NCBI GenBank assembly: GCA_004022145.1
Contig: RCNU01000063.1
Reading direction: 5' to 3' (one strand)
DNA from: Paecilomyces variotii
Lineage: Eukaryota
Length of the DNA stretch: 8,257 nucleotides
Shown here: one piece after another, positions 2,837 to 8,257 of the stretch
How the letters are laid out: each line of letters starts with the position of its first letter
How positions within the stretch are numbered: position 1 is the first letter of the stretch
Made by a program: the position numbers and the translations under genes
The notes under the pieces: generated by a model
The model's database searches: none
Told to the model about the DNA's origin: nothing
What the model saw: the letters and a program-made list of their open reading frames with translations, nothing else

Positions 2837-3030
2837 TTATATAGGTAATTCAGTTCAGTTTAGGGGAGAGTTAGACCGCCTATAGCGGGTTTTAGTTTAG
2901 GGCAGGAAAACTATACTTAAACTAAACTATATTCTAGCGGTTCGGTTTAAAACTAAAAAAACTAAAATATTTACTAAGACTGGGCGCTAAACTAACTTAA
3001 GTTAAATTTTTCTTAAACAATTTAGTTTAA
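2837..3030. mobile_element. Probable terminus of a second large mobile element, with short subterminal repeats
   Basis: An abrupt GC-richer island that keeps CA, TG and CG begins where copia homology stops. It has clustered GTTCAG/GTTTAG/GTTCGG units and their complements: CAGTTCAGTTTAGG 2851-2864, TTTTAGTTTAGG 2890-2901, AAACTAAACT 2919-2928, GCGGTTCGGTTT 2937-2947. Confidence 0.55.
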
Positions 3031-3949
3031 ATAATTTATATAGTTTATAGTATTAAAGGTATTAATATTCTATATTATTTTATATTATTATTAAATTTAT
3101 ATCCTTTTAAATCTATAGCTAAAAAATAGTTTAGATATAATATTATTATATTAAATCTAAAAGTATAAAAATAGTCTTTTAAAATATTATTAAATATTAA
3201 TATAGATTTTAAAATAATTATTATAGAAATATATATATATATTTATAAACTATAGTGCTAATAGAGTACTATTAAATAATATATATAATTTATTATAAAA
3301 GCTAAGATTATTAAATTAAAGAATAGATTTTATTTACTATTATTATTCTTAATAAAAAGTAATTTCTAAATTATTTTTTTAATAAGTTAATAGTAAAATC
3401 TATATATAATTAGTAAGTTATAACTTCTATAGAAAATATATAAATTCTATATATTTATAAAACTTATTAAAATTCTAACTTAAGTTTAAATTATTAAAAT
3501 TATATTATTCTTATAGCTATTTTTTTTTATCTAGATATAGTTTTTAAATTAAATATTATTCTCTTATAATAAATAATCCCCTAATTAAGCTATTTAATAT
3601 AGCTATTCTATTATAAATTACAGACACTTATTTTACCTTAATTTAGCTCTATTAATATAATACTATAATAATAAAACTAAGATCTTTTTTCTTATTAATT
3701 TTAAGAAATAATTTTATATTAAAAGAAGAAATTAATATAGTTATTTTTAGTCAGAATCTTATAAATTATAATTCTAAATTATAAGATACTTTTTCTTATT
3801 ATTTAAGAAAGCAATTAAAATAATTCTTTAAATATATTAGAATTATTTATTTTAAATTAAATTAGCTACCTATATTTTTATTAATATACTAAATATAATA
3901 AACTAGATTATTTAGTATTTTTTTACAGTAGATTATAAGTAGAAATATA

Positions 3950-4760
3950 TATTTTATATATTAATATTAGATAATAAAATTTACTAATTTACCTTTTAAG
4001 TAATATTAAGAAAAGAAAGAAAGTAAAAATAAATATAAGGATATCTCTTAATCTTATTAAGCTAAATAAAAAATATAGTAATTTTAGATAAAGTAGCTTT
4101 AAGATTAGTAAAGATATTTTTAGGAATAATTAGATTAATCTTAATAGTAACTATTATAACTTAAGGCTAATATCTTTTTTTTTAAAGGTAAATTAAATAA
4201 GATAGTTTTAAAAAAAAATATTAAGATTTTATAAAGTAATAGTTAAAAAAAATTATAAGTTATTTATTATTATAATAGCTCTAGATATAGAAGGTAGTTT
4301 AAATAGATAATCTAAGTTAGAAAAAAGTATTTTAACTTAAATTAGAATATATTAAAAGGTTATACTTAAAGTATTTAGTATTACTTTAGCTATATTACTA
4401 AATAAACTAATTATTGCCTATATATAACTTAGCCTATAGAAGAATAAGATAAGTAATAAATATTATATATTAATCTTTTAGTTAAGTATACCTAACTAAA
4501 ACCTAAGAATTTAAAGTATCTTTAAGATACTATTATAAGCTACTGAGAAAAAAATATAAGTAATAAGTTATTATAAGATATTACTAATAATAAAAATAAT
4601 AATAAATTAAATATATAATAGACCTACTTATAATTTAATTTAAGTTAAAATTTATAAGTTTAGTCTCTAAAAAATAAATAAGATTTATTTATTTAATTAG
4701 CAGTAATTTTATTAATAATAGTTAATTAGAGTAATAATAGAATAATTAATAAGAGAGCCT
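3950..4760 (+). pseudogene. Unidentified multi-exon gene relic (or 5' exons of the downstream gene)
   Basis: Intron-like segments (e.g. GTAGTT 4294 to ATTAG 4345) separate coding-like stretches such as 4347-4447 and 4482-4629. No recognisable domain; boundaries approximate. Confidence 0.25.
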
Positions 4761-4989
4761 AAAAAGTCTCTAATATTATATACCTATATATATATATATA
4801 ATTTCTTAATTAGGTATAGTCTATATTAGGAGTATATATATTATATTATTTTTTCTTTTATTATATTTATTTCTTTTATTAAATATATTTTTTAATAAAA
4901 AGAATAAATTCTAATCTAGTTAAAATTTAATTAAAGAACTTTAGATAAGAAATAATATATAAACTAGATAATAATTTAACTTAAGTTAG

Positions 4990-7970
4990 ATTATTTTTAA
5001 GAATATAAGGGAAAATTATTATATACTACTATAAGTTACTAACCCTATTATAATTAAAATTCTAACTTAAATTAAAGGCTCTATAACTTTACCTATTAGA
5101 TAAATAGTATAAATAATAAAAATATCTATTAAATAATAAGGTAAACTCTTTAAAATTTTAATATAGAGAATCTAGCTAGAAGTATTAATAAAAAAGACTT
5201 AAGGTTTATAATTATAGTAATTCTATAAAACCTTATTTAAATTTTAACTCTATTTAGATTAATATACTATATAGGCTAAAGGCTTATATAGCTAAGGCTA
5301 AAGTTTTCTTAATAATAAGAGATAATATAATCTATATAAAGCTTAAGAATAAATATCTGGGAATATTATATATAGATATAAAAAAGCTTAAAATATCTTA
5401 AAAAGATATAAAATATAATTAAGATATTAATACTAACTATATTAAGAACTTAAAGAATAAGTTCTATATTAGTATATAAAGATTTAATATTAATATATAA
5501 ATAAAAATAACTCTAAGTATTAAAGATTTTAACTTAGTATTATAGGTATATATAATAGAACTACTAGAACTAGTAAATATTAGTAATATTTATAGTCTCT
5601 TAAGATAGCAGTAGGATAAAGATAGTAATTTTTTTATTTACTTAAAGAAGTAGCTAAAAAGGCTTATATTACTAATATTATAAGCTAAATAATATTATTA
5701 TATAGCTCTTCTAAAGCTATTAATTAAATAGAAAAAAATAGCTATTATTAAAGCTATTAATTATAAAGAAAAGATAATTAAAAAATTATAGGCTAATATA
5801 TATCCTTATTTTAACTTAAATTAGAATTCAGCTAATTAATCTATAAATATATCTCTAGGCTATTAACCTCTATAATAAGGCAATATTATTAGAAATTCTT
5901 ATAGTATTATAATCTAATTATAAAGATATTGCTTATATTAATATTAATAAAGAGTATATATTCTTACTTATTAAAGAGTAAGAAAAGAAACTTATAAACT
6001 AATATAAAGAACTATTAAAAAACTATAAAAAGTTTAAAAATTAAGTACGCCCTATTATTAGTATATTATTTAACTATATAGCTTATACTATAGCCCCTTT
6101 ATATAATAATATTTAGTTATAATATCTGCGGGAGTATTTATAAATAGCTTATAATTACTCTTATTAAAACTATATATTAAGAGAGATAATTATAAATATA
6201 AAGCTAGATTAAGTATATTTAGAGATCTAATTTTAATTTTAATTTTCTAATTTAAATTAGATTTAGATTATAGAGTTTAAGAAGTTTTTTAGCTTTGCTA
6301 AAATAATCTTTATAGATAAATAAAGCAAAGTAATATTAATAAAGAATTAGAGACTAATTATTAAGTATTATTATAATATAAGCAACTATATCTTATATAT
6401 ATTATTCTTTTTTTTGCAGGCAAATTATAAAAATAATAGACTTAAGCTATTTTTAGATTATAAATAATTTAATAAATAATTATTACCTTACTTAAAGATT
6501 TCTATACTATCTCTTAAGAACCCTACTTAATAACTATCTTTCCTTATAGCTCTATTAGATAAAGCATATATATAAATATAGAAGAATATTTTAAAAAATA
6601 GGGAACTTAAGTTCCCCTTATAATAAATTCTAACTTAAATTAAATATAAAAATTAATTATAAACTAATTATTATAAGAACTTATAAATTAATCTTAATAA
6701 TAAAATCAGTCTCCTATTAAAATCTATGCTAAAATATATTATATTCTAATATAATCTAGAATAGTAATATTTTACTATAGCCTTTAAATATTTCTAAAAA
6801 TTCTAGTAAATAAATAAACTTTAATATTTTCTCTTTTATAAGTCTAATAATATATATACTACTAAGAGCTTTATAAAAAAACTTATTAATAAGCTCTATA
6901 AGGACTTCTTATAGACTTAGATAGATCTAAAACATTATATAATAACCTTATTTAACTATAATTAGAATTAATACTAATATCTTTTAACTACTAGAACTAT
7001 TTAATAACCTTTACTTCTAAAATATTAAAGAATAAGATAGTTATAACTAATAGTATATATCTTTTTTATTTTAAGCGGCGCTATTAGGCCTATATTCTCT
7101 ATATAACTTCTAAAATAATCTTACTTAACTTTAAGAATATTATAAGTTAATTTAATAATAAAAACAAGATTATAAGTTTAGACTATTCTAACTTAAATTA
7201 AAATTAATATAATATAAGGTAAATAACTTTCTATCTTTATTGCCTTTAGTAATATTATATAATAAGCCTAATTCTAATATAATAACGCGGTAAAGAACTT
7301 AAAAATCCTAAAAATTAATTAGTATAAGAATAACTTAAAGACCTAATCTAATATTACTAAGGCTCTATAGATATACTAATTTATTAAAAAAAGCATAATT
7401 TATATTATAAAATTTAGCTTCTCTAAGACTAATAATTATAAAAAAGATTTTAAGAATCTTATTAAGATTAAAATATATATATTATTAATTTAACTTAAGT
7501 TAGAAATTAACCTAATTTAAGAGAAATAATATTAGTATTTATAAGCACTAAAAAAGATTACTAATCTTTTAATTAAATAAGATTAGGCTCTAGATATAGA
7601 TAATATAAATAAATATTTACAATGCTTTATGCTAGACTATAATCTTAAAATTAAGAAAAATATATTATTTAAAAGAAGTTATATATACCTCTTTTAACAT
7701 TATTAAACTAACTACTAATAAATAAATGCCCTTATAATAATAATAAGGAATAATATAAGCTAGAGAATTAAAAATAGCTCTAAGCTGTTATTTTTAACTC
7801 CCTGAGAAAGAAATAAAAAATATTAAAAAATTCTACAGGTAAATAGATTAATATATCTATTCTAACTAAAGTTAAAATAAGATTTAATTAAAATTCTAGA
7901 TTAAGATATAAAGACTAATAAAGTAAATAATATACTTTAAAAAAATAATATAGATAATAATAATAAAGGT
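4990..7970 (+). pseudogene. RIP-inactivated multi-intron gene for a ParB/Srx-like domain protein, DUF3723-like (Starship accessory-type)
   Basis: Exon 5258-~5797 has literal KYLGILYIDIKKL (from 5351), then *DINTNYIKNLKNKF...*RFN=RDVDxNHVKNLKNKF...RRFD, then IL*AK*YYYIAL=LQAGQHRxxAL (5681-5710). The next exon has L*AINLYN=LWAVDLYD (5853-5876) and NINKE=DTDGE (5940-5954). This motif order resembles what I recall of DUF3723 N-termini. Candidate introns: 5031-5099, 5217-5257, 5798-5831/5858, 6213-6266, 7839-7899. Gene ends are uncertain. Confidence 0.55.
6601..6616. repeat. Perfect 16-bp palindrome GGGAACTTAAGTTCCC
   Basis: Equals its own reverse complement and shares the AACTTAAGTT centre of the dispersed motif. 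Confidence 0.9.
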
Positions 7971-8257
7971 AAGTTATTTTTCTTATTAATTATATTATTA
8001 AATAGTTATAATAATATTATTATTATAAGTATAAAAATAAGGCTAAGTTTTTAATTTAGGTTTAAATTTTTTAGTTTAGCTTTAGATAAGCTATCTTAAT
8101 AATATTTACTTAATATATAAGAAACTAACTTAAGTTAGAAGTAAAATAATTAAATTTTTTTTTAGACTAATAATATAATCTCTATTTTTAAGTTAAATTA
8201 TTAAGAGTAGTTTTCCTCTAGTAATAAGAACTTATATTATTTAAAACTTATCTTTAA

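Follow-up and report, generated by a model that had tools for sequence, protein, structure and literature searches.

The 8,257-nt stretch of DNA presented above (hereafter the window) is saturated with damage from repeat-induced point mutation (RIP) and contains, at 5264–6467 on the + strand, what is by its sequence a RIP-inactivated three-exon copy of a 368-codon gene, lying within a cluster of copies of a 20-bp palindromic word. Each of the two introns of this gene holds one whole copy of the word, and the 1,107 nt of exons hold none. We propose, at a probability of roughly 45%, that the word is a short dispersed palindromic repeat belonging to the untranslated DNA of a RIP-destroyed repeat unit. 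An earlier, sequence-only reading of the window had suggested that the palindrome sits inside introns and overlaps their branch-point and acceptor signals; this idea is partly supported, as it holds for the two introns that could be checked and is unproven for the rest. The coordinates of all features are given in the table below.

The degradation of the window by RIP is evident from its composition, with a G+C content of 15.8%, CpA and TpG at 0.12 and 0.10 of expectation, a TpA/ApT ratio of 1.35 and a (CpA+TpG)/(ApC+GpT) ratio of 0.14, and from changes of the C>T and G>A type relative to an intact homologue (protein P0010, see below). The window contains no open frames (approximately 11–14% of codons are stops in each frame), no Pfam family was found in its six stop-masked frames or in sub-regions, and Rfam and tRNA scans of the window gave no match. 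Passages of a published analysis of the Paecilomyces variotii genome describe regions of approximately 20% GC produced by RIP with a CpA bias (PMC6300479), which the window resembles in composition, and the intact proteins closest to the window gene are also from P. variotii. However, that analysis concerns RIPed retrotransposon copies, and its passages name neither the window gene family nor any palindrome.

The gene was recognized by homology. A stop-masked translation of 5258–5797 gave three protein matches among 1.84 billion representatives, the best being P0007 (HMMER E = 2e-22), and a word search with P0007 retrieved P0007, P0010 (368 aa) and P0011, all named as hypothetical proteins of Paecilomyces variotii. 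Using tblastn, residues 3–180 of P0010 were aligned to 5270–5803 in one frame (combined E = 1e-85) and residues 180–366 to 5850–6458 in another, the latter with a 16-codon insert. Once 5798–5846 and 6213–6260 are taken out of 5264–6467, the alignment with P0010 runs over 370 columns without interruption by an internal gap, 197 of the columns being identical, and the stop codon of the gene coincides with the end of P0010. All 25 internal stops in this spliced alignment lie opposite W (10), Q (10) or R (5) of P0010, and the other replacements are of RIP type, the commonest being E>K, A>I, T>I, R>Y, D>N and H>Y; exon C, for example, begins with ATT TAG ATT ATA GAG, corresponding to I-W-I-T-E of P0010. 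Tests based on composition had seen no signal of a gene or of introns and were overturned by homology; such tests are powerless in RIP-saturated DNA. The gene model of P0007 is without 46 residues (P0010 34–79) that are plainly coding in both the window and P0010; either the model splices out real exon sequence or the P0007 copy has a deletion. A search for longer relatives of P0007 found none. A repeat protein of 1515 aa, P0008, was also matched (E = 6e-12, 11 stretches with 28% identity), but this looks like a match of composition or repeats and was not used.

The two segments removed from the alignment have properties of spliceosomal (U2-type) fungal introns, in that they interrupt the coding sequence, are absent from P0010 and restore the frame upon removal (a shift from mod2 to mod0 in the case of intron 1). 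Both ends of intron 1 carry the 7-nt repeat ATATATC, and the placement adopted here is the sole one that gives a [GA]T start and an A[GA] end; its ends would be a RIP-mutated GTATGT...YAG, assuming G>A changes at both. Intron 2 begins with GTATAT and ends with TTAG, in agreement with the GT...AG rule. Both introns had been proposed from the sequence alone, at 5798–5831/5858 and 6213–6266, and homology to P0010 upholds them with slightly shifted 3' ends; the long exons that had been described as free of the motif (5258–5797 and 5859–6212) also hold no copy when redrawn as 5264–5797 and 5847–6212. The sequence-only reading had further treated 4294–7899 as one gene, and this is not supported, as homologous coding sequence is found only at 5264–6467.

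The word itself is far more frequent than the composition of the window predicts. Allowing two mismatches or fewer, the core CTAACTTAAGTTAG occurs 12 times (starting at 2992, 3475, 4332, 4976, 5062, 5811, 6247, 6630, 7188, 7490, 7862 and 8125), with all copies lying within 2992–8138 and none in the first 2991 bases. Dinucleotide shuffles predict 0.48 copies and reached 12 in none of 200 trials, Markov models of orders 1–5 predict 0.35–1.12 copies and reached 12 in none of 300 simulations per order, and the palindrome family is the most over-represented 10-mer and 12-mer family of the window. When the copies are aligned at their centres, conservation extends from −10 to +9 only, delimiting a 20-nt block (ATTCTAACTT followed by AAGTTAGAAT) of perfect dyad symmetry, in which conservation also takes in the outer ATT/AAT and the 6 nt that separate CTAAC from TAG. 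Beyond the 20-mer the flanks are no more similar than random segments (Mann-Whitney p = 0.50), and only one of 66 flank pairs lies above the 95th percentile of the null. A weight matrix adds a clear 13th copy at 4632–4651 (score 18.9, null 95th percentile 12.4) and a marginal one at 6949–6968 (score 10.7, under that percentile). Most of the copies named in the sequence-only reading (4333, 5063, 5812, 6248, 7863, 6631, 7189 and 7491) were recovered by the CTAACTTAAGTTAG scan, the one named at 6953 is the marginal copy, and the one at 4308 matches poorly and was picked up by neither the scan nor the weight matrix.

Among the 13 copies, 20 of the 22 core differences are C>T or G>A, from which we infer that the copies were near-identical before, or during, RIP. 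In its present form the word contains a stop codon in all six frames, and CTAAC is found outside it only four times on the + strand and twice on the − strand. A direct repeat of at least 2 nt flanks seven of the 13 copies (half-lengths 8–9) compared to approximately 24% of random positions, a count confounded by the self-complementary outer AT of the palindrome. On either side of the copy at 3472 stands an exact direct repeat of 11 nt, TTATTAAAATT (3461–3501). It might be taken for a target-site duplication, were it not located within a local tandem repeat with a period of 14. In literature string searches for AACTTAAGTT, TAACTTAAGTTA and TAACTTAAATTA we found primers and one synthetic plasmid and no printed description of the word, and a motif scan of prokaryote contigs gave, among the matches listed, single-site loci only, evidently by chance.

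Had the copies been distributed without regard to the gene, the chance that both introns would hold a whole one is 0.006 (12 copies placed uniformly over the cluster), or 0.012 if 13 copies are placed anywhere but in exons. The sequence-only reading had named as a possible outcome that the motif would be as common in exons as in introns, whereas the exons hold no copy and both introns hold one each. The position of the word differs between the two introns. The last 14 nt of intron 2 are the core copy 6247–6260; this intron has no branch-like site other than the CTAAT of the word, 10 nt from its end, and the TAG of the word is the acceptor, suggesting that here the word serves as both branch site and acceptor. 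The core copy of intron 1 (5811–5824) is in mid-intron, where the palindrome ends 22 nt before the 3' end; this intron has a TTAAC inside the word and a separate branch-like GCTAAT 11 nt from its end, so that the word would be only a passenger and not an acceptor. An overlap of the palindrome with the acceptor is supported for intron 2 and not for intron 1. Fungal splice signals are given, in passages of PMC5677156, as the branch site CTRAY (secondarily TTRAY) and the acceptor YAG, and both introns have a CTRAY or TTRAY site shortly upstream of a YAG-type end.

Each half of the word matches CTRAY, the branch-site consensus of fungi, and has YAG at the end of its reverse complement. Any CTRAY, once reverse-complemented, terminates in YAG, and the word thus offers branch and acceptor signals on both strands. 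Since a working intron 2 needs AG at its end, the right arm must have read T[T/C]AG before RIP, and the resemblance to a splice signal is therefore not merely a product of RIP. If the word was already palindromic at that time, its left arm would have read CT[A/G]A, which fits CTRAY...YAG.

Approximately 11 copies lie outside the coding sequence, five within 3472–5078 upstream and six or seven downstream, where the spacing is 236–383 nt. These cannot be introns of the coding part of this gene, because its coding sequence is 5264–6467 only; this applies to the segments 4294–4345, 5031–5099 and 7839–7899 and to the sites near 6631, 6953, 7189 and 7491, which the sequence-only reading had taken for introns or probable introns. 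The GT (or AT)...AG brackets on which it had relied do exist, but carry no information: GT...AG segments of 34–70 nt enclose seven of the 12 copies compared to 1902 of 3000 random 14-mers, and GT/AT...AG segments enclose 12 of 12 compared to 2978 of 3000. Donor-like hexamers (22 per strand) lie 20–100 nt upstream of three of the 12 copies, which is no enrichment. Stop-poor frames are equally uninformative, the minimum of 8 stops per 180 codons being matched by 44 of 200 Markov simulations and the true exon A having 12 per 180, and three-base periodicity is weak (mean chi-square 8.0 compared to 5.9, with two of 100 simulations attaining it). With the three exons as its training set, a codon model, which in cross-validation recovers the frame of exons A and B and not that of the short exon C, detects coding-like relics at 2183–2716 (−), 7281–7613 (+) and 7803–8093 (+), each scoring at least 13. 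Three such segments compare with 0.27 expected, and none of 200 simulations shows three; they may be relics of neighbouring genes. No relative was found for the stop-masked translation of 7200–8102. By dynamic programming we also set the highest-scoring spliced model built on the real copies against models built on random positions, a test that on the known gene gave a score reached by none of 100 controls.

These observations would be explained if the window is an AT-rich, RIP-destroyed repeat relic of a Paecilomyces-type (Eurotiales) genome, in which the 20-bp dyad word was present in near-identical copies before RIP, once per intron, never in exons and approximately 11 more times in the flanking 5 kb. 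The word would have been tolerated wherever it was spliced out or untranslated and, as it seems, excluded from exons, and it would have been open to recruitment as a 3' splice module. Several observations weigh against this explanation. Only two introns are verified and approximately 11 copies lie outside the only recognizable coding sequence; in intron 1 the word is not the acceptor; its TpA steps could be RIP products, the sequence before RIP being fixed only at the AG of intron 2; and the intron positions rest on predicted gene models of homologues. When every copy was required to mark an intron, controls were as good in 107 of 150 (+) and 47 of 150 (−) cases upstream and in 25 of 150 on the + strand downstream; on the − strand downstream none of 150 controls reached the real score, which in absolute terms is just 4.1. 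Hairpin formation as a function is not supported in the present copies: when six of them were folded as DNA, the values lay between 0 and −4.7 kcal/mol and no copy was clearly better than its own shuffles, which removes one possible function and suggests none.

What the lost gene encoded bears on one of the alternatives. P0010 contains no Pfam domain that we could find and does not match PF12520 at E up to 10. Its match to TIGR03187 (DGQHR, DndB-like, ParB-fold) has an E value of 1.1e-4 and is sub-threshold at 22 bits (cutoff 58.85). Its nearest language-model clusters carry DUF3723 (score 0.94, 22% and 78% of members); with these excluded, its neighbours carry ParB_N, GmrSD_N, DndB and DUF6551 (0.86–0.89). 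The leads to a ParB/DndB (DGQHR) fold and to DUF3723 are weak and mutually consistent, and we treat them as leads only. A PDB sequence search with P0010 found nothing, and its AlphaFold model (pLDDT 37) is unusable; a PADLOC match to UzuA (E = 0.0017) was not used. DUF3723 is described in passages of PMC9156397 as a conserved cargo gene of Starships, of unknown function. The language-model resemblance to this family (0.94) is the sole likeness to Starship auxiliary genes, from which P0010 differs in being without PF12520, and neither DUF3435 nor any other Pfam domain was found in the six frames of the window.

Given the leads to a ParB-like protein, the dyads may still be sites at which the encoded protein binds, and the word copies may be parS-like targets of a ParB-like protein encoded around them. 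In ParB-parS systems, palindromes of 16–20 bp are clustered in and around the gene for a ParB-fold protein. The 20-bp dyad would by analogy be an operator- or parS-like site of a dimeric DNA-binding protein of the repeat unit, possibly the product of the intron-carrying gene itself, with introns and flanks used as positions that spare the protein. The perfect dyad symmetry over 20 bp, the presence of 13–15 copies within 5 kb with none in the neighbouring 3 kb, an arm-swapped variant that is still palindromic and the weak leads of P0010 to a ParB/DndB-like fold are all consistent with this, yet the family leads are sub-threshold without exception, the Pfam and PDB sequence searches were empty and the structure model is of no help. 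Moreover, parS has no relation to splice signals, and such an array leaves unexplained both the match to the splice consensus and the word ending exactly at the 3' splice site of intron 2; we consider it a doubtful explanation. It is far less credible that there is nothing special about the word, that is, that ordinary branch and acceptor sequences or chance words have been made alike and palindromic by RIP. RIP does collapse sequence space, with CTAAC and TAG the expected products of CTGAC and CAG, and the presence of both signals reduces to one coincidence given that the reverse complement of CTRAY ends in YAG. However, Markov models to order 5 give no more than 1.12 copies compared to the 12 observed, conservation extends to the six-base spacer from CTAAC to TAG and to the outer ATT/AAT, CTAAC is rare outside the word, and intron 1 has a branch-like site and acceptor of its own. 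The sequence-only reading had raised this possibility against itself, and for the set of copies as a whole we reject it.

It is also unlikely that the introns share an introner-like origin, in which introns across 4294–7899 would have multiplied from one element of which the palindrome is the recognizable remnant. Such an origin, which the sequence-only reading had offered as one alternative, the other being the carrying of binding sites, would account for the word in both verified introns, for the exon-like spacing of the downstream copies and for the coding-like relics at 7281–7613 and 7803–8093 on the + strand, and introner-like elements (ILEs) are said, in passages of PMC3609843, to degenerate until they are indistinguishable from ordinary introns. 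Against it, the introns share nothing beyond the 20-nt core, even though RIP makes copies converge; at 48–49 nt they are no longer than regular introns; the core is placed differently in the two; homologous coding sequence is confined to the one gene; the + strand intron-marking test is not significant; and the stop-masked 7200–8102 is without a relative. Similarly improbable is a further possibility, that the palindrome is a minimal, orientation-independent 3' splice cassette that spreads within a mobile or repeated gene region, in the DNA that is not translated.

Two groups of repeated fungal introns invite comparison with those of the window. The ILEs of Dothideomycete fungi are described in passages of PMC3609843 and PMC4457414 as repeated sequence in introns that degenerates toward ordinary introns, and the likeness lies in a repeated sequence common to different spliceosomal introns of a fungus. 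ILEs, however, are alike over their whole length, longer than regular introns, with a stable predicted fold, and number tens to hundreds per genome, distributed over many genes; here only the 20-nt core is common, the introns are short and the copies fold no better than shuffles, so that whole-length likeness, extra length and stable structure are all absent from the window introns. The sister (stw)introns of Hypoxylaceae have, according to passages of PMC8469720, proliferated and are internally symmetrical, and an intronic palindrome, 5'-WTTCTAGAAA, is present without flanking duplications and is dispensable for splicing. The outer arms of the window word (TTCTA...TAGAA) resemble this palindrome, but the Hypoxylaceae introns are 93–207 nt in length, carry terminal inverted repeats of 45–55 nt and are alike along their length, while those of the window have no terminal inverted repeats, share a 20-nt core in a variable position and are accompanied by many copies outside verified introns. 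The host orders differ as well, with Eurotiales-type relatives here compared to Xylariales for the Hypoxylaceae introns.

Table. Gene parts and copies of the palindromic word in the window (strand given as. where the feature has none)
Feature	Position	Strand	Evidence or remark
Exon A	5264..5797	+	tblastn and gap-free spliced alignment; ATA 5264-5266 at the position of the P0010 start Met
Intron 1, 49 nt, ATATAT...CTATAA	5798..5846	+	Absent from P0010; removal restores collinearity
Exon B	5847..6212	+	P0010 aa 180 onward from 5850, frame mod0; spliced alignment
Intron 2, 48 nt, GTATAT...AATTAG	6213..6260	+	16-codon insert relative to P0010
Exon C, stop TAA 6465-6467	6261..6467	+	Alignment reaches the end of P0010
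Palindrome copy, first of cluster, abuts GC-richer island	2989..3008	.	CTAACTTAAGTTAG scan, weight matrix
Palindrome copy	3472..3491	.	CTAACTTAAGTTAG scan, weight matrix
Palindrome copy; 21-mer identical to 5807-5827	4329..4348	.	CTAACTTAAGTTAG scan, weight matrix, repeat family D7
Palindrome copy, 3 RIP-type core changes	4632..4651	.	Weight matrix only
Palindrome copy	4973..4992	.	CTAACTTAAGTTAG scan, weight matrix
Palindrome copy, ~200 nt upstream of start codon	5059..5078	.	CTAACTTAAGTTAG scan, weight matrix
Palindrome copy within intron 1	5808..5827	.	CTAACTTAAGTTAG scan, weight matrix
Palindrome copy, 3' end of intron 2; last 3 nt of 20-mer in exon C	6244..6263	.	CTAACTTAAGTTAG scan, weight matrix
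Arm-swapped variant GGGAACTTAAGTTCCC(C)	6599..6616	.	Central 10 nt the same; arms different, still complementary
Palindrome copy, ~160 nt downstream of stop codon	6627..6646	.	CTAACTTAAGTTAG scan, weight matrix
Marginal copy	6949..6968	.	Weight-matrix score 10.7
Palindrome copy	7185..7204	.	CTAACTTAAGTTAG scan, weight matrix
Palindrome copy	7487..7506	.	CTAACTTAAGTTAG scan, weight matrix
Palindrome copy, 23 nt downstream of donor-like CAG/GTAAAT	7859..7878	.	CTAACTTAAGTTAG scan, weight matrix
Palindrome copy, perfect 14-nt core	8122..8141	.	CTAACTTAAGTTAG scan, weight matrix

Some further features of the window were recorded in the course of this analysis. The arm-swapped variant sits 28 nt upstream of the copy at 6630; it is a lone instance of a change that would count as compensatory. 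At 5241–5260 stands ATTTTAACTCTATTTAGATT, a degenerate word resembling the palindrome, which ends 4 nt before the start codon; its weight-matrix score of 5.7 is in the null range, and the sequence-only reading had placed an acceptor at this site. A GC-richer island at 2840–2990, which the first palindrome copy adjoins on the right, has words of the TTTAGGG-like and AAACTAA kinds in both orientations; to its left the window is free of the motif, and to its right it is rich in it. In the left part, 1185–1643 is a long inverted repeat (self-BLAST E = 1e-61, 459 nt at 73% identity). Its arms align well in their outer ~110 nt (approximately 1185–1300 and 1528–1643), with differences that are mostly transitions, and it has the look of an inverted duplication or of a foldback or MITE-like element that underwent RIP.

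The practical lesson of this gene is that tests of composition are blind to coding sequence in RIP-saturated DNA, where stop-masked translation could still find an intact relative. How fungi gain introns is an open question, and the repeated introns described so far, the ILEs and the sister introns of Hypoxylaceae, are long, with likeness along their entire length. A palindromic core of 20 nt that recurs in introns of normal size, unrelated in other respects, and in the non-coding DNA nearby would be a different and much smaller intron-associated repeat unit. Should the word prove to be a splice cassette, its landing in a transcript could give rise to a short intron or reshape one, and every introner-type element described so far would be larger.

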